This document shows, piece by piece, positions 1,684 through 15,593 of a stretch of 64,000 bases of DNA (positions within the stretch are counted from its first letter, which is position 1; each line of letters begins with the position of its first letter). Made by a program: the position numbers and the translations under genes. Under the pieces are notes generated by a model. It was given only the letters and a program-made list of their open reading frames with translations, did not search any database and was not told where the DNA came from. The stretch is from Escherichia coli (GTDB lineage Bacteria > Pseudomonadota > Gammaproteobacteria > Enterobacterales > Enterobacteriaceae). The stretch lies in assembly GCF_013315695.1 (NCBI RefSeq), contig NZ_CP054353.1; one strand, given 5' to 3'.

Positions 1684-4128
1684 TTACACCTTTTCAACCT
1701 GAACAAGGTTTGTATGTGACGGATTCCCCTTAGCGAGAGGAGACGGACGTTGAGTGGTCAGTACGTTGATACAACCGCCCTTATCGACACGTTTTGTATC
1801 CGGGTCATACCAGGCACCTTCACCCAGTGCGACCACACCCGGCATCATTCGTGGCGTCACTTTCGCCTCAATATGAACCTCACCACGATCGTTAAAAATC
1901 CTGACTTTATCGCCGTTGTTGATACCGCGTTTTTGCGCATCAAGCGGGTTGATCCACATTTCCTGACGGCAAGCTGCTTTCAGCACATCAACGTTGCCGT
2001 AAGTTGAGTGAACGCGAGATTTATAGTGGAAACCCGTAAGCTGCAGCGGATACTGTTTGTTCAGCGGATCCTGATAACTTTCAAAGCCCGGCGTGTAGAT
2101 CGGCAGTGGATCGATCACATCACCTTCTGGCAATTCCCAGGTCGCGGCAATGTCAGCCAGCGCCTGCGAATAAATCTCAATTTTCCCCGATGGCGTGGTC
2201 AGTGGATTTGCCTGCGGATCTTCACGGAAAGCTTTATAAGCAACGTGATGCCCTTGTGGGTCGCGCTTTTTAAAGATCCCCTGCTTACGGAACTCTTCAA
2301 ACGTTGGCAGTTCAGGAATCGCTTCCCGCGACTGGGCATACAGATGCCGCATCCACTCTTCCTGGGTACGGCCCTCAGTAAACTGTTGCTCAACGCCAAG
2401 ACGTTTTGCCAGTTCGCTGGTCATTTCATAGATGGTCTTACATTCAAAGCGTGGTTTAATCACCTGATCGTTGAAAATCACGTAAGACATATTCCCGCAG
2501 GATGCATCCAGCGCAAAGTCCATCTGTTCGGAAGCGGTGCAGTCAGGCAGCAGGATGTCAGCGTATTTCGCCGATGAGGTCATGTGGCAGTCGATAACCA
2601 CAATCAGCTCGCACTTCTTATCATCCTGAAGGATTTCATGGGTACGGTTGATTTCAGAATGCTGATTAATCAGGCAGTTACCGGCATAGTTCCAGATCAT
2701 TTTGATCGGCACATCCAGCTTATCTTTCCCGCGCACACCATCACGCAGCGCTGTCATTTCCGGGCCACGTTCAATGGCATCGGTCCACATAAACATCGAA
2801 ATGCTGGTCTGGATCGGGTTTTCGAGGGTCGGCATACGGACAAACGGTAAGCTGTATGAACCTTCACGCGCGCCGCTGTTGCCTCCGTTAATACCAACGT
2901 TACCGGTCAGAATCGCCAGCATCGAGATAGCACGGGTTGCGATTTCACCGTTAGCGTGACGCTGCGGGCCCCATCCCTGGCTGATAAACGCCGGTTTGGT
3001 ACTACCGATTTCACGAGCCAATTTGATGATTTTGTCTGCCGGAACACCAGTGATTTGCGAGGCCCATTCCGGCGTTTTAGCCACGCCATCTGGCCCTTCA
3101 CCCAGAATATAAGCTTTATAGTGACCATTTTTCGGCGCACTGGCTGGCAGTGTTTTCTCGTCGTAGCCAACGCAATATTTATCGAGGAATGCCTGATCCA
3201 CCAGGTTTTCGGTGATCATGACATACGCCAGACCGTTAACCAGTGCGGCATCTGTTCCCGGACGAATAGGGATCCACTCATCTTCGCGCCCGGCACCGGT
3301 GTCGGTATAGCGCGGATCGATGATGATCATGCGAGCATTAGATTTCTGGCGCGCCTGTTCAAGATAGTAAGTCACCCCACCGCCACTCATTCGCGTTTCG
3401 CCAGGGTTATTACCAAACAGCACTACCAGTTTACTGTTTTCGATATCCGACGGGCTGTTACCATCTGCCCAGCCGCCGTAGGTATAGTTCAAACCTTCCG
3501 CAATTTGCGCGGAAGAGTAGTCACCGTAATGGTTCAGATAACCGCCGCAGCAGTTCATCAGGCGAGCGACCAGGGTATTTCCCGGCGGCCAGGAGCGGGT
3601 CATGGTGCCGCCCAGCGTACCGGTACCATAGTTCAGATAGATAGACTCGTTGCCGTACTCTTTGATCAGGCGCTGCATATTGGTCGCGATGATGTCGTAG
3701 GCTTCTTCCCAGCTAATGCGCTCGAATTTGCCTTCACCGCGCGCCCCGACTCGTTTCATCGGATATTTCAGGCGGTCCGGATTGTAGACACGGCGACGCA
3801 TGGAACGCCCACGCAGACAGGCGCGCACCTGGTGCAGGCCGTCATAGTTGTCATCGCCGGTATTATCCGTTTCAACATATTTAATTTCACCGTCCACAAC
3901 GTGCATACGTAGCGGGCAGCGGCTACCACAGTTAACTGTACAGGCGCTCCAGATTACCTTTTCGTCTGACTTTGCCGGAAGGGCACTATCAACAGCGTGC
4001 GCAATCCGACTAAAAGGTAATGTTAATGCGCTGCTGGCCATTGCCAGGCCGCCGATCGCTGTCGTTTTTACCAAACCACGGCGACTCACCTCAGCAGCCA
4101 ATACCGCATCAGGGATTTTCGTTTTCAT
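1684..4128 (-). CDS. dmsA: DMSO reductase catalytic subunit DmsA (molybdopterin oxidoreductase, Tat signal)
   Basis: 814 aa, N-terminal twin-arginine signal (SRRGLVKTTAIGGLAMA), molybdopterin oxidoreductase motifs. Confidence 0.95.
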   Translation of the reverse strand: MKTKIPDAVLAAEVSRRGLVKTTAIGGLAMASSALTLPFSRIAHAVDSALPAKSDEKVIWSACTVNCGSRCPLRMHVVDGEIKYVETDNTGDDNYDGLHQVRACLRGRSMRRRVYNPDRLKYPMKRVGARGEGKFERISWEEAYDIIATNMQRLIKEYGNESIYLNYGTGTLGGTMTRSWPPGNTLVARLMNCCGGYLNHYGDYSSAQIAEGLNYTYGGWADGNSPSDIENSKLVVLFGNNPGETRMSGGGVTYYLEQARQKSNARMIIIDPRYTDTGAGREDEWIPIRPGTDAALVNGLAYVMITENLVDQAFLDKYCVGYDEKTLPASAPKNGHYKAYILGEGPDGVAKTPEWASQITGVPADKIIKLAREIGSTKPAFISQGWGPQRHANGEIATRAISMLAILTGNVGINGGNSGAREGSYSLPFVRMPTLENPIQTSISMFMWTDAIERGPEMTALRDGVRGKDKLDVPIKMIWNYAGNCLINQHSEINRTHEILQDDKKCELIVVIDCHMTSSAKYADILLPDCTASEQMDFALDASCGNMSYVIFNDQVIKPRFECKTIYEMTSELAKRLGVEQQFTEGRTQEEWMRHLYAQSREAIPELPTFEEFRKQGIFKKRDPQGHHVAYKAFREDPQANPLTTPSGKIEIYSQALADIAATWELPEGDVIDPLPIYTPGFESYQDPLNKQYPLQLTGFHYKSRVHSTYGNVDVLKAACRQEMWINPLDAQKRGINNGDKVRIFNDRGEVHIEAKVTPRMMPGVVALGEGAWYDPDTKRVDKGGCINVLTTQRPSPLAKGNPSHTNLVQVEKV

Positions 4129-4298
4129 AATGGCTCACTCAAGCTTGCTCACGATTGATTCCAGTAACAAACCGTATTGTGTAATTATTTCTATAGCAGG
4201 TCGCTATATAGGATTGTATATATCGAATAATTTGAAAATCAAAGAGATAGGTAGATTTTCACTCGAAAGTAGTATTACGTGTAAGTGAGGAGTAATTA

Positions 4299-4312
4299 TT
4301 GTTCGGTATCAA
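4299..4312 (-). promoter_or_regulatory. FNR-type binding site upstream of dmsA (TTGATaccgAACAA on minus strand)
   Basis: Matches TTGAT-N4-ATCAA-like FNR consensus about 170 bp upstream of the dmsA start; dmsABC is FNR-activated (established). Confidence 0.6.
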
Positions 4313-4322
4313 AGGGAGACAA

Positions 4323-4338
4323 AAAAAGCGCCCGCAGG
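4323..4338. repeat. attL core: 16-bp direct repeat aaaaagcgcccgcagg
   Basis: Identical 16-mer at 43150-43165 next to the serS terminator; brackets the prophage with integrase adjacent. Confidence 0.65.
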
Positions 4339-4427
4339 AGATTTAACACACCTTACTCCCCTTGATGATTTACTTATTTTTCAATGACTAAATCAAAACA
4401 AGGGGAGCAAATTAACGCAAATTACAA

Positions 4428-5420
4428 CTAGTCAATGGACAGTTTATGGACACTATCAGCCAGCGGATTAAAGCTAATCGCATCCTGTAAAAAGTCCGGT
4501 GAAAAATGCGCATACGTCATCGTTTGTTGAATCGTGGCGTGCCCAAGGATTCGCTGTAACGTAACGATATTTCCGCCGTTCATCATGAAATGCGTGGCGA
4601 ACGTGTGACGCATAACGTGAGTCGCCTGACCTTTGGGTAAATCCGGTTTCACCTCCTGAAGGATATCCCGAAAACGGATGTAATCAGCCTGGTACAATAG
4701 CCCGGTTTTTCGGGTTTTTATCAACGAAAGCACCGTATCAGAAACAGGAACCGCGCGGGATTTTCCATTCTTTGTGTTAAAGAACATTACGCGGTTACCA
4801 ACGATATGCTCACCACGTAAGCCAGCTGCTTCCCCCCACCTTGCGCCAGTGGAAAGACACAGAACAGCAACACGACGCGCATCCCCCTCGAGTCGTTCAA
4901 GCAGCCGATCAATCTCATCATCTGAAAGAAAGGCCATTTCTGTATTCCTGACCTTGAGCTTACGTATTCCACGCACCGGGTTTTCGTTATGGAAAACCTC
5001 CGCATCAATCAACGCAGTAAACATTGCAGACAAGGCGCACAAATCACGATTAACACTGGAGGGCATTAATCCGGCCTGTAATTTGTCTGAACGATACCCG
5101 AGCATAAACTTTCGCGTCATCTCACTGGCGCGGGGGTCCCTCATCTCACGGTTTATTTTTTCCAGCCTGACCCTGTAAGTATCCCCGTAAGGCTGATTCC
5201 GGCCATCAAGCACCCACCAGGCATCTATCAGTTCGGATAACCGACGCTGATCAGCTGGCTTGGCCTGCCACGGTTTATCGTGGAAATTCTGCAAAACATA
5301 CCTTTCAAACTCCTGTGCCTTTGACTTCAGGGTAAAAATCTTACGGATCCGCTTTCCTTCCGTCCCTTGCGGTCTTACATCAACCTTATAACGCCCGTCT
5401 TTGAGTTGCTTAATCGACAT
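4428..5420 (-). CDS. int: tyrosine integrase, P2 Int-like
   Basis: 330 aa from ATG with GGAGGGG RBS; strong similarity to P2 Int as recalled (LSTGARWGEAA, HxLRHTFATHF, GHATIQQTMTYAHF). Confidence 0.92.
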   Translation of the reverse strand: MSIKQLKDGRYKVDVRPQGTEGKRIRKIFTLKSKAQEFERYVLQNFHDKPWQAKPADQRRLSELIDAWWVLDGRNQPYGDTYRVRLEKINREMRDPRASEMTRKFMLGYRSDKLQAGLMPSSVNRDLCALSAMFTALIDAEVFHNENPVRGIRKLKVRNTEMAFLSDDEIDRLLERLEGDARRVAVLCLSTGARWGEAAGLRGEHIVGNRVMFFNTKNGKSRAVPVSDTVLSLIKTRKTGLLYQADYIRFRDILQEVKPDLPKGQATHVMRHTFATHFMMNGGNIVTLQRILGHATIQQTMTYAHFSPDFLQDAISFNPLADSVHKLSID

Positions 5421-8252: not shown

Positions 8253-8357
8253 CCTGAAGCCGAAAGCAGGCGCGGAATAACACCAGAAAACACACGAGCA
8301 ATTAATTAAGGCATTCATGCCTTCGGGTTCCCTTTGTCTTTTTTCAGGAGTCAACAA

Positions 8358-8588
8358 ATGAGAACAGCCGAATCACCCGGCAGAAAAATAACCGCCAGAC
8401 CAGCTAACCATCATGCACATATCAGCATTGCCGCAAGAAAAGCCGAGCGTGCGCATATCTGCGAATTGCTGCATGACCTGGTTAACACAGCGAGAGAGAA
8501 GCACACCTCCCCGGAGGAAACCTGTTCATCCATTGAACGACTGATTGCAATACTCGCCAACCCAGACGAACTGAAGGGGTGCGCATAA
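8358..8588 (+). CDS. early-operon hypothetical protein (76 aa)
   Basis: ATG at 8358 with AGGAG RBS; stop overlaps the exonuclease start (TAATG). Confidence 0.55.
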   Translation: MRTAESPGRKITARPANHHAHISIAARKAERAHICELLHDLVNTAREKHTSPEETCSSIERLIAILANPDELKGCA

Positions 8589-9169
8589 TGAACCATCTCA
8601 TGATTGACACCGAAACACTGGGTAACGGACCGGACGCAGCCATATTCACGATTGGGGCGGTGTTTTTCGACCCGTTCACCGGAAAGCTGGGCAAGCAGTT
8701 TGAGAAATTCATCGACCCGGTGGATTCAGAACGCAACGGCGGAACCGTCAATGCAGCCACCGCTGTATGGTGGGCCGGACAATCCGTGGAAGCCAGAGCC
8801 TGCCTGCGCAACGCAGATGGAACAGAGCTGGCAGCAGTGACCGAATTTCTGGCGTTCATTTCACGCAATATGCATGACGAAAGCCCGGGCAATTCACTGA
8901 ACATATGGTGTAAGGGCGCATCCTTCGATTTCCCGATCCTGAAATCCGCCATAACACGCACAGCCGGAGAAAAAAGCATCCCCTGGTGCTACTGGAACGA
9001 GCGCTGTATGCGCCCGCTTATCGCCATGGCTGAATCAACTGGATGGAAAATGCCAGGCAGATCAGGCAAAGAGACCATTGCTCACACCGCGCTGGGCGAC
9101 GCCGTTTACCAGGCAAAGGTCGTGTCAGAAATCTGGCAGCGCTTCACAACACCATTCCTGAACATATGA
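8588..9169 (+). CDS. 3'-5' exonuclease, DEDD (DnaQ-like) family
   Basis: 193 aa; MIDTETLG (Exo I D-x-E) and HTALGDA (Exo III) motifs. Confidence 0.75.
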   Translation: MNHLMIDTETLGNGPDAAIFTIGAVFFDPFTGKLGKQFEKFIDPVDSERNGGTVNAATAVWWAGQSVEARACLRNADGTELAAVTEFLAFISRNMHDESPGNSLNIWCKGASFDFPILKSAITRTAGEKSIPWCYWNERCMRPLIAMAESTGWKMPGRSGKETIAHTALGDAVYQAKVVSEIWQRFTTPFLNI

Positions 9170-9178
9170 GGTGAAGCC

Positions 9179-9406
9179 ATGGTCGCCATCCTGAATGTGT
9201 GTTGCTGCCCCCCCCTGAACGTGGAAAGAAAAGCCCGCGCATCGCTGCGTTTATTCCGCGACGGCGTGCGGAATTTTTCACGCATAAAACCCCACGACTA
9301 CCTGGTAATAAGAATCGGTTTTCGCTGGCGATTGCTGAGCAAAAACAACGGGGCGTCATGGGATTTATTAACGCACGAAACCTATAACAAAGAGGCCGCG
9401 TTATGA
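9179..9406 (+). CDS. hypothetical small protein (75 aa) between exonuclease and Dam
   Basis: ATG with GAGGTG RBS; stop overlaps the dam start (ATGA); odd composition (CCCPP). Confidence 0.35.
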   Translation: MVAILNVCCCPPLNVERKARASLRLFRDGVRNFSRIKPHDYLVIRIGFRWRLLSKNNGASWDLLTHETYNKEAAL

Positions 9407-10347
9407 GCAAAGAACTGTTATCCGGCACGCCGCTTAAATGGGTGGGCGGAAAAAGTCGCATCATGAACACACTGAAGGCGCATCTGCCAGAAGCAGACTG
9501 CCTGGTTGAGCCGTTTGTGGGTGGCGCATCGGTATTCATGAACACCAGTTACAAGCGTTACATCCTGGGTGATTCCAATGGTGCGCTGATTAATTTCTAC
9601 CGGCAAGCCAGGGACAACACCGACAGCCTGATCGACGAGGCGAAAACCCTGTTCCTGAACCACAACAACAGGGGTGACTATCTCATCATTCGCGAAACCT
9701 TTAACGCAGAGAATCATGCCTTCCTGAACAGCAGAACGGGAATAAGCGACCGCCGTGAACTGCGACTGGCCGCCATGTTTTTGTACCTGAACCGACACAG
9801 CTTTAACGGTTTGTTCCGCGTGAACGGAAAAGGCGATTTTAACGTGCCTTTCGGCTGCTACCGCAAGCCCTACTTCCCTGAGCGTGAAATCCGCGCATTT
9901 GCAGACAAGGCAAACAGCACCCGAACGCTGCTTATCCACGCAGATTTTAAGGATACGCTGAACTCTGCCAGTCACCTGTTCGGCATGGGCAACACGCTTT
10001 GCGTGTACTGCGATCCCCCTTACCTGCAATTCAGTGGCCGGGACAATTTTACCGCCTACGGAAAACCATTCGATGAAGACGAGCACGTTCGTCTGAGGGC
10101 AGCGCTCGACCGCCTTTCACAGGAAACGGGCGGCATGACCAGCATCACCATCTCCAATTCCGACACACCGGAAACACGACGCATTTATCGGGGTTACCGG
10201 ATGAACTGCATACAGGCACCACGAAGCGTTGGCGCAAGAACCCGGGAATCAGCACCGGAGGTTATCGCCACCCTGAGATGCATCACATCCGCCTTATCAA
10301 CGGTTCGCACTTCTGCGCCACGAACATGGAAGAAGTACGCGTGCTGA
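9403..10347 (+). CDS. dam: DNA adenine methyltransferase, Dam family
   Basis: PLKWVGGK, LVEPFVGGASVF, FLYLNRHSFNGLFR and DPPY motifs; about 35 extra C-terminal residues versus E. coli Dam. Confidence 0.85.
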   Translation: MSKELLSGTPLKWVGGKSRIMNTLKAHLPEADCLVEPFVGGASVFMNTSYKRYILGDSNGALINFYRQARDNTDSLIDEAKTLFLNHNNRGDYLIIRETFNAENHAFLNSRTGISDRRELRLAAMFLYLNRHSFNGLFRVNGKGDFNVPFGCYRKPYFPEREIRAFADKANSTRTLLIHADFKDTLNSASHLFGMGNTLCVYCDPPYLQFSGRDNFTAYGKPFDEDEHVRLRAALDRLSQETGGMTSITISNSDTPETRRIYRGYRMNCIQAPRSVGARTRESAPEVIATLRCITSALSTVRTSAPRTWKKYAC

Positions 10348-10375
10348 CAGCAACACGCAATACGGGAGGTAAAGC

Positions 10376-10726
10376 ATGGCAGTGATTTATATCGCCGGTC
10401 CCATGACCGGATGCAAAGACCACAACAGGACGGCATTTTGCGTGGAGGACCTGAAACTTCGGTGCGCCGGAAACATCGTTCTTAATCCTGCCGTACTGCC
10501 TGACGGATTAAGCCAGCAGCAGTACATGAGTATTTGTATTCCGATGCTCATGTGCGCCGATGCCATTTACTTACTGGATGGATGGGAAGAGTCCGCTGGC
10601 GCACGGGCTGAGTACGCAATGGCGCTCAAACTGAACATGCATGTGTCATTCCCGGAAAACCGGGCAGCCGGCGAAACCGTCGCGCAGCTGCTTCACAAAT
10701 CAAAAGCCGCACAGGCGACTGAGTAA
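10376..10726 (+). CDS. DUF4406 / nucleoside 2-deoxyribosyltransferase-like protein
   Basis: N-terminal MAVIYIAGPMTG signature and size typical of this fold (from memory); GGAGG RBS. Confidence 0.55.
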   Translation: MAVIYIAGPMTGCKDHNRTAFCVEDLKLRCAGNIVLNPAVLPDGLSQQQYMSICIPMLMCADAIYLLDGWEESAGARAEYAMALKLNMHVSFPENRAAGETVAQLLHKSKAAQATE

Positions 10727-11164
10727 CCGACCGGAGATCGAAACATGATTGCGCGCAGAGCTACCAACCGTCTCACAGGCTTTATTCCAGGCAAGGTTGA
10801 TCATGCACTCCATCACGGGGCTGTCACTTTCCTCAACAAAGGAGAGGCGCGCAATCATGCATTCCGGGGTGAGCATGTGGCGCTGGCTAATCAGTCTTTG
10901 ATAGCTAAGCGCCTGCCATTCAGCCTTTTCAGCTCTGATAGAAAGAGAGGAAGCCATGACCTGCCACACCAGAAAGAGCACCACACTGGCGAAAACAAAC
11001 GTTGCGCTGTCGCAAAAAATGAATGCGGCAACAATCGCAAGGAAAGCGCTAATCCTCAGAACCAAGGAAGCGCGACGGTGGAGAAGGCTTGTCATGTGTT
11101 CAAGCCAGTAGCTGTACCACAGGTCAAAAAGAATTTCGTAATCAGAAGGGAGCTTATCACTCAT
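10700..11164 (-). CDS. membrane protein (about 154 aa, two predicted TM helices) transcribed opposite to the early operon
   Basis: ATG at 11164; MSDKLPSDYEILFDLWYSYW, TM segments LVLRISAFLAIVAAFIF and FVFASVVLFLVWQVMASSL; 3' end overlaps the convergent DUF4406 gene. Confidence 0.5.
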   Translation of the reverse strand: MSDKLPSDYEILFDLWYSYWLEHMTSLLHRRASLVLRISAFLAIVAAFIFCDSATFVFASVVLFLVWQVMASSLSIRAEKAEWQALSYQRLISQRHMLTPECMIARLSFVEESDSPVMECMINLAWNKACETVGSSARNHVSISGRLLSRLCGF

Positions 11165-11347
11165 CAGAAACACCCCGCGTATGCAGACAATCACCAGTTG
11201 CCAGGTGATATTAATTCGCAACATTCTAACCACATCAGCACGCAACACAAAAACCGCTTGCCAGCGCTCGTCGTGTCAGGTTACATTTCCGCTGCACCTC
11301 ATAAAACGGGTGCCGGGTTTCGCAGCCTGCTGACAACCAAAGCGCAC

Positions 11348-11368
11348 AACCGCGCCAGCGGTTTTTTT
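11348..11368 (+). terminator. intrinsic terminator-like hairpin plus T-run (aaccgc-gcca-gcggtt-ttttt) in repeat copy 1
   Basis: 6-bp GC-rich stem followed by T7, nested in outer symmetry cgcacaa...ttgtgcg. Confidence 0.5.
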
Positions 11369-11547
11369 GTGCGTACTGTATTGCCACGTCTTTTTCGCGT
11401 CAGAATTATGGCGGGGCGTACGGGGCCGACTTCGGTCGGGCCGGGTTCTTTGCTAGCCGGTACTGCGAACCTCGTACGTCTCGCCACCCACAGTTTCGCA
11501 GCTCTGGATGGTGAGTTTTCACAACTTACTAGCAAAGAGGCCACACC

Positions 11548-11769
11548 ATGGCAAACCGCAAGCAACAGCGCGCCCGCGCTGAGCGTCTTCACATCCGCAG
11601 CGAAATCAACCGCAGACTTTTCCGCGCAACACGCGTCGCGCAAATCATGCATATCAACATGCTGCATGAGCGCACGCACGCACTATCAAACCGTTACTGC
11701 GCTGCTGTCTTCAGCTATCTCGCCGAAGATCTGGCAGAACTGCAAAGCCTCATCAACCAGCACCGATAA
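11548..11769 (+). CDS. small basic protein (73 aa, MANRKQQRARAERLHIRSEINRR...), repeat copy 1
   Basis: ATG with AAAGAGG RBS; identical copy at 12377-12598. Confidence 0.5.
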   Translation: MANRKQQRARAERLHIRSEINRRLFRATRVAQIMHINMLHERTHALSNRYCAAVFSYLAEDLAELQSLINQHR

Positions 11770-11837
11770 ACCACATCCGGAAGCTATCCCACACCTGCAC
11801 GCGGGAGGCTTCCGCACGTCTGTTACCGGAGGTTCTC

Positions 11838-12009
11838 ATGAAGAGCGTTAAGGGACTTTCAGATATTCAGGACTTCTTTAACTGGATGTGGGCGGTGGAT
11901 CCCCTGCTGGCTTCCCGCCTGAACAACTGGCACGACTATTACCGCCGCGCCTGTAAACAGGCTGCCCGCAGCGTCACCACATACGGGGCTTTCTCCTTCA
12001 CCGTTGACT
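11838..12009 (+). pseudogene. truncated 5' duplicate (about 57 codons) of the 138-aa gene, broken at the duplication junction
   Basis: Same RBS and first 57 codons as 12667-13083, then reads into repeat copy 2. Confidence 0.55.
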
Positions 12010-12176
12010 ATGCAGACAATCACCAGTTGCCAGGTGATATTAATTCGCAACATTCTAACCACATCAGCACGCAACACAAAAACCGCTTGCCAGCGCTCGT
12101 CGTGTCGGGTTACATTTCCGCTGCACCTCATAAAACGGGTGCCGGGTTTCGCAGCCTGCCGACTAGCAAAGCGCAC

Positions 12177-12197
12177 AACCGCGCCAGCGGTTTTTTT
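12177..12197 (+). terminator. same terminator-like hairpin in repeat copy 2
   Basis: Identical sequence at +829. Confidence 0.5.
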
Positions 12198-12376
12198 GTG
12201 CGTACTGTATTGCCACGTCTTTTTCGCGTCAGAATTATGGCGGGGCGTACGGGGCCGACTTCGGTCGGGCCGGGTTCTTTGCTAGCCGGTACTGCGAACC
12301 TCGTACGTCTCGCCACCCACAGTTTCGCAGCTCTGGATGGTGAGTTTTCACAACTTACTAGCAAAGAGGCCACACC

Positions 12377-12598
12377 ATGGCAAACCGCAAGCAACAGCGC
12401 GCCCGCGCTGAGCGTCTTCACATCCGCAGCGAAATCAACCGCAGACTTTTCCGCGCAACACGCGTCGCGCAAATCATGCATATCAACATGCTGCATGAGC
12501 GCACGCACGCACTATCAAACCGTTACTGCGCTGCTGTCTTCAGCTATCTCGCCGAAGATCTGGCAGAACTGCAAAGCCTCATCAACCAGCACCGATAA
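12377..12598 (+). CDS. small basic protein (73 aa), repeat copy 2
   Basis: Identical to 11548-11769. Confidence 0.5.
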   Translation: MANRKQQRARAERLHIRSEINRRLFRATRVAQIMHINMLHERTHALSNRYCAAVFSYLAEDLAELQSLINQHR

Positions 12599-12666
12599 AC
12601 CACATCCGGAAGCTATCCCACACCTGCACGCGGGAGGCTTCCGCACGTCTGTTACCGGAGGTTCTC

Positions 12667-13083
12667 ATGAAGAGCGTTAAGGGACTTTCAGATATTCAGG
12701 ACTTCTTTAACTGGATGTGGGCGGTGGATCCCCTGCTGGCTTCCCGCCTGAACAACTGGCACGACTATTACCGCCGCGCCTGTAAACAGGCTGCCCGCAG
12801 CGTCACCACATACGGGGATTTCTCCTTCACCGTGGACGGTCGTTACCGCGTGGACGTGAAAGGTGATGGTGATGGACTGGGTTTATTTCACATCAACGGC
12901 ACCGACAGTACCGCCATCAGCTGGTCGTCATCAGAGATGGCGCTGGTTCTGGAAATGACAACCCACAGCGTGGCCGTGAAAGGTATATACACCGCAGAAG
13001 GTTTTATCGGCGAATACCAGCGCCTTCTCGTGCTGTACCGCGCGGCGTTTCAGGTGGCAACTGCCGGGGAGTGCGACGCATGA
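12667..13083 (+). CDS. hypothetical protein (138 aa) immediately upstream of and coupled to gene A
   Basis: ATG with GGAGG RBS; stop overlaps the A start (ATGA). Confidence 0.6.
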   Translation: MKSVKGLSDIQDFFNWMWAVDPLLASRLNNWHDYYRRACKQAARSVTTYGDFSFTVDGRYRVDVKGDGDGLGLFHINGTDSTAISWSSSEMALVLEMTTHSVAVKGIYTAEGFIGEYQRLLVLYRAAFQVATAGECDA

Positions 13084-15593
13084 GCGACCATAACGCACAA
13101 CTGGCGTACCCGTGGAACGCCCCGCTACCGGTTATCGATCCTGAAACGTTCGGCAGAGCACAGCCAACCGCATTACGCCAGGCCATTCAGAGCTACATCA
13201 ACGAGGACATTCGCATTGATGCCAGACTGGATGAAGAAACCGTCGCCTTTCTGACAACCACAGACGAAGGGAAGCGAATTAATTCGCACCTTCACCACAA
13301 CGAAGAGCGTCGGATCAGACTGGAAAAACTGGCGCGGCACAAACGCGAGAATCCGCCCACGGTGGTATCGGAAGCCATGGCAGAACTTCGCGCCCTGCCC
13401 TCGTTTCTTGGCAACGCGCTCATTCGTGATCTGGCGCGTTTAAACCGCAAACAGCAAAGCGCCCGCCATGAAGGCGTGAAAAACAACAATACACACGTGG
13501 CTGATAACTTTGTTCGCCGTGGACTGCGCACACGCCTGAAACGCATCGAACAGGTGAATGAATGCTTCGCCACGACGGCATTCAAAGCCACCGCAGCACG
13601 CCATCGCCTTGATGAATTACTCATGCTGCCACAACTCAACCGTGATCAAATTCAGCGCCTTGCCACACTAACGGCGGCGGCATTTTCCACCGAACTGGAA
13701 CGCATATGTGATGAAGTTACTGAGCGGACAGGAAAAGGCGACGATAACCTGTTTACCTGGTTGCTGACTTACCAGCAGCTGGCGCGCATGGCAATAAAAC
13801 TGGGCGTGAACCCACCATACTGGCCGTCACTCGAGATCAGACGTGACCGCCGCACGGCACCAGACCCTGAACTGGTACCGGGCGCGGTAATGCGTATCAC
13901 CTGCGCCACCTGGTGGAACAACCAGCTGCGCCACCTCGCTGATCTCTGGCGGGAGGAATTACTGCGTGCCGCCGGAAGAGTATCGCGCAAGGCATCCCCC
14001 TACATCAGCCATGAGTCACTCCAGGAATTCCGGGAGAAACGCCAGCGCACCCGTGATTTTCTCAAAAGCTGGGACATTGAAAACGAAGACGGTGAACGCC
14101 TGAGCCTGGAGGACGTGTACTGGTCAGGGCTGGGGAATCCGCGCAACCGCCGCAACGAGATGATGGCCTGCGTCAGAGGGATGGAACAGGTCGCCGAATC
14201 GCGTGGTGACTCCGCGTTCTTCGTGACAGTGACCTGCCCTTCCCGCTTTCACAGCGTAAACGAGGACGGCAGCCTGAACCCGAAATACAACGGTGCCACC
14301 GTGCGCGATGCCAGTGATTATCTGGTTTACGACGTCTTTGCAGCTGCAAGAAAAAAACTCAACAAAGAAGGCCTGAGCTGGTACGGGGTGCGCACCGTTG
14401 AGCCACACCATGACGGCACACCGCACTGGCACATGCTGGTATTCACCGCCCCGGACAATGAAGAACGCATCATTGAAATCATGCGTGACGCAGCAATCAA
14501 ATCAGATCGCGCAGAACTGGGGAATGATATTTCTCCGCGCTTCAAGTGCGAAAAAATCGACCCGGCAAAAGGCACACCGGCAAGCTACATCGCAACCTAT
14601 ATTGGCAAGAACCTGGACGCCAGCACCTTTCACGACAATGACCCGAAAACCGGCAAACCTTACGCCGATAAAGAATCGGGAAAAACCATGGCGGAAACCG
14701 TGGAAAACGCCATTGCCTGGGCGAGTCTCCACCGCATCCGGCAGTTCCAGTTCTTCGGTATCCCGCCCCGCCAGGTATGGCGTGAACTCCGCCGCCTTGC
14801 CGGACAAATGGAGCGTAACCCCGCATCACCGAAGCGCCTGGACCATGACGACATTGACGCCATTCTGGCCGCCGCTGACGTGGGGTGTTTTGCCACCTAC
14901 ATCAACCGTCAGGGCGGCGTGCTCATTCCACGCAACCTGTACCTGATCCGCACCGCATACGAAACCGCAGATGAGGCCAACGACTACGGCGAATTCCCGC
15001 AGCGCATCTACGGAATTTGTGCCCCGTCGCTCGGCGAGCGCTACACCATCTGCACCCATCCGGACGAGTGGAAACTGGTCAGAAAAGAAGCGAAAGCCGA
15101 CAACAGCACGGACGAGGATTTTGACGTTGGGGGCGGCTTCGCCGCACCTTGGACTCGTGGCAATAACTGTCGCCATGATGAAAAAACAGACACCGAAGAG
15201 GGTAAAAACCCACCACCGGAAACCAGGAAAGAACAAAAACTGGTCGTCCCGGAAGGTGATTTGGGCGAGTGGTTAAGGTCACTGACCCCCACAGAGCGAA
15301 AACAACTCACCAGGCAGCTGAAAGATGCGCCATCTGACACAAAAACCGTGAAAACCGGCGGCCCCACCACGCCCGATGACGTCATACATGTGCGTACCGC
15401 ATTGCCGCTGGCTGACGTCACCACCACCGTGATCAAGTCGGCACTGAGCACGACGGGCGAGGAGCTGCACAGTGGCGCGGCACTTTCCGTACACAGAGGT
15501 GCACGCGTTCGCCTGCCTGACGGGCGGATTGTGCACTGGGATGAGAAATCACGAAGCCTGGTGGCAGCAGATCAACCGGAGGTGAACCCATGA
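13080..15593 (+). CDS. replication initiation endonuclease, P2 gpA-like (HUH rolling-circle initiator)
   Basis: 837 aa; GTPHWHMLVF H-hydrophobic-H motif; size and position as P2/186 A. Confidence 0.88.
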   Translation: MSDHNAQLAYPWNAPLPVIDPETFGRAQPTALRQAIQSYINEDIRIDARLDEETVAFLTTTDEGKRINSHLHHNEERRIRLEKLARHKRENPPTVVSEAMAELRALPSFLGNALIRDLARLNRKQQSARHEGVKNNNTHVADNFVRRGLRTRLKRIEQVNECFATTAFKATAARHRLDELLMLPQLNRDQIQRLATLTAAAFSTELERICDEVTERTGKGDDNLFTWLLTYQQLARMAIKLGVNPPYWPSLEIRRDRRTAPDPELVPGAVMRITCATWWNNQLRHLADLWREELLRAAGRVSRKASPYISHESLQEFREKRQRTRDFLKSWDIENEDGERLSLEDVYWSGLGNPRNRRNEMMACVRGMEQVAESRGDSAFFVTVTCPSRFHSVNEDGSLNPKYNGATVRDASDYLVYDVFAAARKKLNKEGLSWYGVRTVEPHHDGTPHWHMLVFTAPDNEERIIEIMRDAAIKSDRAELGNDISPRFKCEKIDPAKGTPASYIATYIGKNLDASTFHDNDPKTGKPYADKESGKTMAETVENAIAWASLHRIRQFQFFGIPPRQVWRELRRLAGQMERNPASPKRLDHDDIDAILAAADVGCFATYINRQGGVLIPRNLYLIRTAYETADEANDYGEFPQRIYGICAPSLGERYTICTHPDEWKLVRKEAKADNSTDEDFDVGGGFAAPWTRGNNCRHDEKTDTEEGKNPPPETRKEQKLVVPEGDLGEWLRSLTPTERKQLTRQLKDAPSDTKTVKTGGPTTPDDVIHVRTALPLADVTTTVIKSALSTTGEELHSGAALSVHRGARVRLPDGRIVHWDEKSRSLVAADQPEVNP

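Follow-up and report, generated by a model that had tools for sequence, protein, structure and literature searches.

A 64,000-nucleotide (nt) stretch of an Escherichia coli contig (NZ_CP054353.1), referred to throughout as the window, carries four tightly packed genes between positions 8588 and 10726 that encode a DexA-type exonuclease, a small RelE/ParE-fold protein, a Dam-family DNA methyltransferase and a DUF4406 protein. The best overall explanation is that these genes, which lie in the early operon of a P2-like prophage, probably supply independent accessory functions and do not form one machine. The features on which this reading is based are listed below with their lengths in amino acid residues (aa) and, where relevant, the profile matches and expect values (E) that define them.

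8588–9169, plus strand: predicted DEDDh 3'–5' exonuclease of the Rv2179c/T4 DexA family, 193 aa (PF16473, PHROG 255, T4 DexA entries in the PDB)
9179–9406, plus strand: RelE/ParE-fold protein, 75 aa (PF24732 ParE_like, E 1.1e-17; PHROG 1525)
9403–10347, plus strand: Dam-family N6-adenine DNA methyltransferase (D12, alpha class), 314 aa (PF02086, TIGR00571)
10273–10282, plus strand: junction left by a 485-bp deletion as compared with the commoner allele, from DNA alignment with viral contig L005
10376–10726, plus strand: DUF4406 protein, 116 aa (PF14359, PHROG 355)
13071–15593: gpA replication nickase, with the gene order of the window the same as in E. coli NZ_CP075852
3385–4010 of contig L005: segment of the commoner allele with the 326-aa Dam tail followed by open reading frames (ORFs) of 78 and 72 aa, absent from the window at ~10273–10282
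~3000–3800 of contigs L097, L102, L127, L107, L103, L130, L098 and L112: degenerate homologues of the exonuclease

The 2.5-kb stretch holding the four genes is 96–99% identical to chromosomal segments in most of the 30 complete E. coli genomes that match it, and near-identical E. coli prophages (98.8–99%) contain an integrase, a repressor, the same operon, a replication endonuclease, a portal protein, a terminase and a GPO scaffold protein. In NZ_CP075852, the prophage with this stretch sits beside nadA/pnuC and is ordered integrase, helix-turn-helix (HTH) repressor, rightward early operon with these genes, gpA (annotated as replication endonuclease), portal, terminase and GPO scaffold, an arrangement of P2-like (Peduoviridae) type. 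The four genes occupy the distal part of the early (lytic) operon in a P2-like temperate phage that has integrated into the E. coli chromosome, upstream of gpA. Junctions between the four genes in the ORF listing either overlap or are no longer than 28 nt, no terminator-like site was found on the plus strand within 8334–10726, and the overall numbers of promoter- and terminator-like sites in the scanned region, sought as possible breaks between the four genes, are close to those expected from shuffled sequence; the genes are thus most simply taken to be part of one early transcript. All four proteins have exact-sequence database entries from E. coli that already bear these annotations. A near-identity search against deposited phages returned no match, and a distant search of the same set returned short matches only, to Dam and the exonuclease. 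The stretch is an ordinary and already annotated part of a P2-like prophage early operon.

An earlier note on this DNA had described the exonuclease, Dam and DUF4406 genes as three consecutive genes that together could modify or process phage DNA to evade host restriction. The three plus strand ORFs and their family assignments are confirmed by profile matches (PF16473, PF02086 and PF14359), but the genes are not consecutive, as the 75-aa ParE-like ORF lies between the exonuclease and Dam, and the joint module is not borne out by the company that these genes keep elsewhere. Among 80 viral contigs anchored on DUF4406 homologues of 50–99% identity (the alignment of the anchor itself being made from 16 closer sequences), a D12 Dam gene occurs within 4 kb in five, all of them P2-like, and an exonuclease in two. 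The commonest upstream neighbours of DUF4406 are instead a lambda O-like replication protein and a DnaB-type helicase, with Ead/Ea22, DUF4752 and DUF977 proteins around them, such that the usual setting of the family is an accessory region behind lambdoid replication genes. A second set of 80 viral contigs, anchored on Dam homologues of 40–86% identity, has gpA downstream in 78, an Rv2179c-type exonuclease immediately upstream in 42, a ParE-like gene in 30 and DUF4406 in 3. Annotated Peduoviridae have the same exonuclease–Dam–nickase order. The run of exonuclease, optional ParE-like gene, Dam and gpA recurs as a block in the early operons of P2-like phages; DUF4406 joins it only sporadically and moves independently of it.

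Similar blocks are present in Klebsiella phage 3LV2017 and Escherichia phage ESSI2_ev040, in which small early genes are followed by a DEDD exonuclease, an optional small gene, Dam and the nickase. The 3LV2017 exonuclease and Dam are 47% and 49% identical to those of the window, respectively, and ESSI2_ev040 has an RNase_T-type exonuclease where the window has an Rv2179c-type one, and a DUF3850/ASCH protein where the window has the ParE-like one. Unlike both of these phages, the prophage in the window adds DUF4406 downstream of Dam and carries a deletion allele of Dam. The deposited 3LV2017 record (L085 in our set) contains a 379-aa coding sequence named DNA methyltransferase at 3312–4451 that runs into the exonuclease gene; the annotated start is apparently placed too far upstream, which makes this coding sequence extend across the stretch that is ParE-like in related phages.

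The exonuclease matches the Rv2179c-like model PF16473 over its entire length (E 6.5e-51, 173 bits against a cut-off of 27, model positions 1–177 of 177) and PHROG 255, labelled exonuclease (E 2e-59). Its only sequence relatives in the PDB are entries for T4 DexA, 8KEN/8KEL (E 1.6e-12), to which it is 28% identical. The previous description of this protein as DnaQ-like holds for the DEDDh superfamily and does not hold for the family, which is Rv2179c/DexA; the RNase_T (DnaQ-type) model is reached only at E 0.019. All five DEDDh residues align with those of DexA, D7 and E9 in the ExoI D-x-E motif, D114 in ExoII, and H166 and D171 in the ExoIII H-x4-D motif, and the roles of the DexA catalytic residues have been reported (PMC12153337). 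The protein is thus predicted to be a DexA-type 3'–5' exonuclease with an intact active site. PADLOC returned only a generic DEDDh match for it and only a generic methyltransferase match for Dam, and NCBIfam contains no model matching the exonuclease, the ParE-like protein or DUF4406.

The HREX exonucleases described by Kang et al. 2025 (PMC12153337) include DexA and EcD (HAK9828821.1), a homologue from E. coli. EcD digests the hydroxymethylcytosine DNA of T4 and leaves unmodified duplex DNA uncut at 25 °C, and cells expressing it from a plasmid are protected against T4 (PMC12153337). It carries an alanine, A78, at the position of DexA tetramer residue D90, a change tied to loss of the tetramer, and retains the tryptophan and the acidic residue tied to hydroxymethylcytosine recognition (DexA W152 and D169) (PMC12153337). 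In the alignment with T4 DexA, W136 and E149 of the window exonuclease correspond to W152 and D169, and A82 to D90; A82 would become A78 if translation started at M5, and a 189-aa member is present in the same protein cluster. The EcD forward primer given in the supplement of PMC12153337 matches 17 of 17 bases at 8600–8616, and the reverse primer matches 19 of 20 at 9151–9169, with one extra base. EcD is probably this exonuclease gene or a very close allele of it, and the window protein would be expected to share the published EcD activity. The reverse primer in the supplement, EcD_R, reads GAAACATATGA against GAACATATGA at the 3' end of the gene, and its extra base stems from a typing error or reflects a different allele. 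In the published study EcD is presented as a defence gene of bacteria, with no mention of a prophage, whereas the gene in the window is an early gene of a P2-like prophage. If the two are the same, the meaning of EcD moves from host immunity to phage biology or inter-phage competition, and the timing of its expression comes into question. During lytic growth, the enzyme may degrade foreign or modified DNA, or DNA ends.

The Dam-family protein scores far above the cut-offs of PF02086 (E 1.3e-51, 176 bits, cut-off 22) and TIGR00571 (226 bits, cut-off 114.85), and has an intact AdoMet (S-adenosylmethionine) motif of the FxGxG type, EPFVGGASVF, as well as the catalytic DPPY at residue 204. BLASTP aligns residues 11–292 with residues 8–269 of E. 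coli Dam (EcoDam) at 38% identity. Since its score against the NCBIfam equivalog model for chromosomal E. coli Dam, NF008152, is 217.6 bits and falls below the cut-off of 441, the protein is best classed as a phage paralogue and not the host enzyme. EcoDam reads GATC through R124 (Gua4), L122 and P134 (third base pair), Y119 (intercalation) and N120, and contacts the first base pair with K9 and Y138 (PMC4417163). The corresponding residues of the phage enzyme are R139, L137, P149, F134, N135, K12 and Y153, so that all GATC-contact positions are retained with a single Tyr-to-Phe change (F134 for Y119), and the predicted specificity is GATC. Thus, the phage enzyme resembles EcoDam (PDB 2G1P) in its D12 alpha class, its FxGxG and DPPY motifs and its GATC-contact residues, and differs from it in overall sequence, in internal insertions and in an unrelated C-terminal tail. 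The non-specific adenine methylase M.EcoGII was considered as a model and rejected, being a beta-class enzyme.

Such an enzyme would methylate GATC on rapidly replicating phage DNA, topping up a limiting supply of host Dam, and may protect progeny in hosts that are dam-negative or that possess GATC-cutting restriction enzymes. An anti-restriction role is accordingly possible in those hosts, and would be redundant at best in dam+ E. coli. The prophage contains 123 GATC sites, an observed/expected ratio of 0.73 as compared to 0.83–0.86 in the host flanks; this frequency is close to that of the flanks, shows no depletion beyond host levels and is uninformative with regard to selection.

The C-terminal end of Dam was earlier thought to be an extension of ~35 aa. 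The 36-aa excess in length over EcoDam is, however, mostly due to internal insertions (13 aa near residue 105 and ~8 aa near residue 190), and the tail past the homologous region is 22 aa, ~13 aa longer than that of EcoDam. In the window, the sequence after '...EVIATLR' is CITSALSTVRTSAPRTWKKYAC, a sequence with no relation to the Cys-rich tail of the more common 326-aa allele, which reads QCDACGHHGGGYCPDCG... and has a CxxC...CxxC motif. Comparison with contig L005 reveals a clean 485-bp deletion that removed the Cys-rich tail together with two small ORFs (78 and 72 aa) and fused the 3' end of Dam to the 3' end of the downstream 72-aa ORF. Both forms circulate: the 314-aa protein is present in 129 contigs and one 326-aa protein in 511, the two alleles fall together in a cluster at ≥90% identity whose members range from 297 to 326 aa, and the relatives that cover the full query include some of 2501 bases, the length in the window, and others of ~2986. 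The clean deletion relative to L005 and the dissimilarity to the 326-aa tail show that the 22-aa tail is a by-product of the deletion junction and not a conserved extension.

The 75-aa ParE-like ORF occupies the space between the exonuclease and Dam genes, shares 4 nt with the start of Dam and is annotated by PGAP in relatives. Both its profile match and its predicted fold correspond to RelE/ParE toxins, although the protein is shorter than the 84–121 aa typical of them. No cognate antitoxin is evident: the ORF is flanked by the exonuclease and Dam, with no small antitoxin-like ORF between these two. PADLOC returned no match for this protein or for DUF4406.

For the DUF4406 protein, a literature search on function returned passing mentions only and no biochemistry, which agrees with the statement in the earlier note that a role in phages is not established. 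That note had also named a failed profile search for DUF4406 as a refuting outcome; the search instead matched PF14359 at E 1.1e-32 (112.7 bits, cut-off 22, model positions 2–90 of 91) and PHROG 355, labelled nucleoside 2-deoxyribosyltransferase, at E 2.6e-38. The family numbers 7,732 representatives or clusters at 50% identity (E ≤ 0.001), and is found in 443 deposited phage records, including phages of Vibrio, Gordonia, Arthrobacter, Mycobacterium and Pseudomonas and phage N15 (gp57). An AlphaFold2 model built from 101 homologues has a predicted local distance difference test score (pLDDT) of 94.8, a predicted template modelling score (pTM) of 0.88 and a four-stranded alpha/beta fold, and we can be confident that the protein is predicted to adopt a minimal version of the fold shared by nucleoside 2-deoxyribosyltransferases, DNPH1 and MilB.

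A search of the PDB with the single sequence returned no match, and structural relatives were reached with the family profile and by fold search. The family profile finds the Trypanosoma brucei deoxyribosyltransferase 2A0K (E 5e-4), in which Y-I-A-G-P aligns with Y-I-A-G-P and D-x-G-x3-E, the motif of the covalent nucleophile, aligns with S73-x-G75-x3-E79; E79 corresponds to the glutamate of the G-T-A-F-E-V-G motif in 2A0K. Among the 101 homologues, E79 is conserved in 95, S73 in 99 and G75 in 97. The best Foldseek matches include MilB, a hydrolase of cytidine monophosphate (CMP) and hydroxymethyl-CMP, and DNPH1, solved with hydroxymethyl-deoxyuridine monophosphate (hydroxymethyl-dUMP) bound. 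Thus, DUF4406 has the flavodoxin-like fold, the N-terminal Y-I-A-G-P loop and the glutamate of the S/D-x-G-x3-E motif in common with deoxyribosyltransferases, DNPH1/Rcl, MilB, BcmB and DmtZ. Unlike them it measures ~95–116 aa, as compared to ~135–165 aa, has no counterpart to their C-terminal elements, and mostly carries cysteine at the third catalytic position. Features that are invariant and specific to DUF4406 are N37, P38 and P42 of an N-P-x3-P-x-G loop, Y50, M57 and W70.

Phage DmtZ, a deoxyribosyltransferase-family enzyme, is an N-hydrolase of deoxyadenosine monophosphate (dAMP), and the catalytic triad of the superfamily has been given for it as Tyr, Asp or Asn, and Glu (PMC12884076). 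DmtZ was reported to have no Pfam model (PMC12884076), and so belongs to a family different from DUF4406. The Pfam model Nuc_deoxyrib_tr (PF05014) does not match the window protein and matches 1 of 45 longer homologues weakly; the PA1492-like DUF1937 protein (PDB 1T1J) is 19% identical to it, and the Pfam DUF1937 score of 15.7 lies below the cut-off of 23. With moderate to low confidence, DUF4406 may be a small N-glycosidase or transferase that acts on a nucleoside monophosphate or a related nucleotide, like DNPH1, MilB and DmtZ. Early in infection, such a protein would adjust the nucleotide pool by breaking the N-glycosidic bond in a (deoxy)nucleoside monophosphate or a nucleotide related to one. 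The fusion partners of the 45 longer homologues (DUF7768, DUF551, HTH domains and a zinc finger) are uninformative as clues to function, and the labels 'deoxycytidylate deaminase' and 'MazG-like' on actinophage homologues were discarded, these being stand-alone genes of ~120 aa and not fusions. As a very large phage-borne family with a confidently predicted fold, a conserved nucleophile and a substrate to be found, DUF4406 is a tractable target for biochemistry.

Several observations weigh against the reading of these genes as independent accessory enzymes with the activities proposed above. GATC methylation by the phage enzyme would duplicate that of host Dam. P2-like viral contigs have 39 distinct homologues of the exonuclease in the position upstream of Dam, and 22 of the 39 have lost E9, D114 and H166; the ExoI motif in these 22 proteins is DLI or DIR and the ExoIII histidine is replaced by Arg or Thr, while the conserved N- and C-terminal segments are retained. 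The window copy is intact, and the 22 degenerate proteins appear to be pseudo-exonucleases retained in synteny. Since over half of the syntenic homologues are predicted to be catalytically dead, the conserved role of this gene position may not be nucleolytic. An exonuclease encoded in the early operon should be repressed in lysogens, which fits poorly with its published description as a bacterial defence gene, and its identification with EcD is based on the primers, one of which has a 1-nt indel, and on residue numbering, not on the EcD sequence itself. With regard to DUF4406, the full catalytic triad is not found: the third position, Asp or Asn in the superfamily and located here by alignment with 2A0K, is occupied by Cys in 70 of the 101 homologues, by Gly in 11, and by Thr and Asp in 8 each (C54 in the window protein), the Tyr5 position is Tyr in 81 and Phe in 14, and the C-terminal third of deoxyribosyltransferases is absent. 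For these three reasons a catalytic role of DUF4406 is not assured.

One alternative is that the three genes of the earlier note, for the exonuclease, Dam and DUF4406, work together as a single module that modifies and processes phage DNA and thereby shields it from host restriction. This would be in keeping with their tight packing on one strand of the early operon and with their DNA- or nucleotide-directed functions, and Dam and DUF4406 are indeed adjacent in a few divergent P2-like contigs (L007, L008, L035, L137 and L140), where they are 45–48% and 55–64% identical to the window proteins, respectively; DUF4406 of N15, gp57, also adjoins a putative cytosine methylase. Co-occurrence is nonetheless rare in both sets of loci (5/80 and 2/80 around DUF4406, 3/80 around Dam), and most DUF4406 genes lie behind genes for lambdoid O and DnaB-like replication proteins, where the recurrent neighbours scanned include no methylase. 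Two extra ORFs separate Dam from DUF4406 in close relatives, the predicted GATC methylation is already provided by a dam+ host, and no feature of DUF4406 points to polymeric DNA as its target. We consider this cooperation very unlikely. Somewhat better placed, if still unlikely, is the proposal that the block is a weapon against competing phages, in which an EcD-type exonuclease destroys the hydroxymethylcytosine DNA of superinfecting T-even phages with the other genes in support, Dam by marking self DNA and DUF4406 by destroying modified nucleotides such as hydroxymethyl-deoxycytidine monophosphate (hydroxymethyl-dCMP). EcD does degrade T4 DNA and protect against T4 (PMC12153337), the window exonuclease keeps the hydroxymethylcytosine-recognition residues (W136 and E149) as well as A82, the residue associated with tetramer loss, and the best structural matches of DUF4406 include MilB, for which hydroxymethyl-CMP is one of the substrates, and DNPH1, solved with hydroxymethyl-dUMP bound. 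The protection against T4 was, however, obtained by expression from a plasmid, the early-operon position predicts repression in lysogens, over half of the syntenic exonuclease homologues are predicted to be inactive, and DUF4406 seldom accompanies the exonuclease.

The most specific form of this proposal, in which all four genes make up a phage-versus-phage cassette aimed at T-even phages, with DUF4406 destroying released or newly made hydroxymethyl-dCMP and Dam marking prophage DNA as self, is highly improbable; if true, DUF4406 would be the first N-glycosidase encoded by a phage to act on a modified nucleotide in inter-phage competition. It is also quite unlikely that DUF4406 is a counter-defence protein that uses a TIR/deoxyribosyltransferase-like fold to bind or cleave a nucleotide-derived immune signal, such as the ADP-ribose-type products of TIR enzymes. 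By sequence profile and by Foldseek, the protein is closer to deoxyribosyltransferases, MilB and DNPH1 than to TIR domains, the conserved glutamate is situated within a deoxyribosyltransferase-type S-x-G-x3-E motif, PADLOC gave no match, and the literature search found no link between the family and counter-defence. Independent accessory functions within one early operon therefore continue to be the preferred reading of the four genes.

Other features of the window lie around this block. On the minus strand, a 182-aa ORF (10700–11248) runs towards the DUF4406 gene and shares 27 nt with the 3' end of that gene. Pfam gave nothing significant for this ORF (DUF6239, E 0.006), and a shorter hypothetical protein is annotated at its position in relatives. 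The enterobacterial small RNA STnc130 (Rfam, 126 bits) is found at 4219–4353, just outside the integrase end of the prophage. Between the DUF4406 gene and gpA, an 829-bp unit is duplicated in tandem with ~5 mismatches (copy 1, 11180–12008; copy 2, 12009–12837). Each copy contains a match to the Rfam family isrK (11294–11368 and 12123–12197), a C4 antisense RNA (11404–11491 and 12233–12320), a 73-aa ORF matching Pfam PF25738, 'Derepression protein' (E 1.6e-6), and the 5' portion of an ORF of 138 aa. Each ORF of the duplicated unit is listed only once in the close relative NZ_CP075852. The duplicated region resembles the immI region of P1, with its C4 RNA and antirepressor, and is located here within a P2-like prophage.

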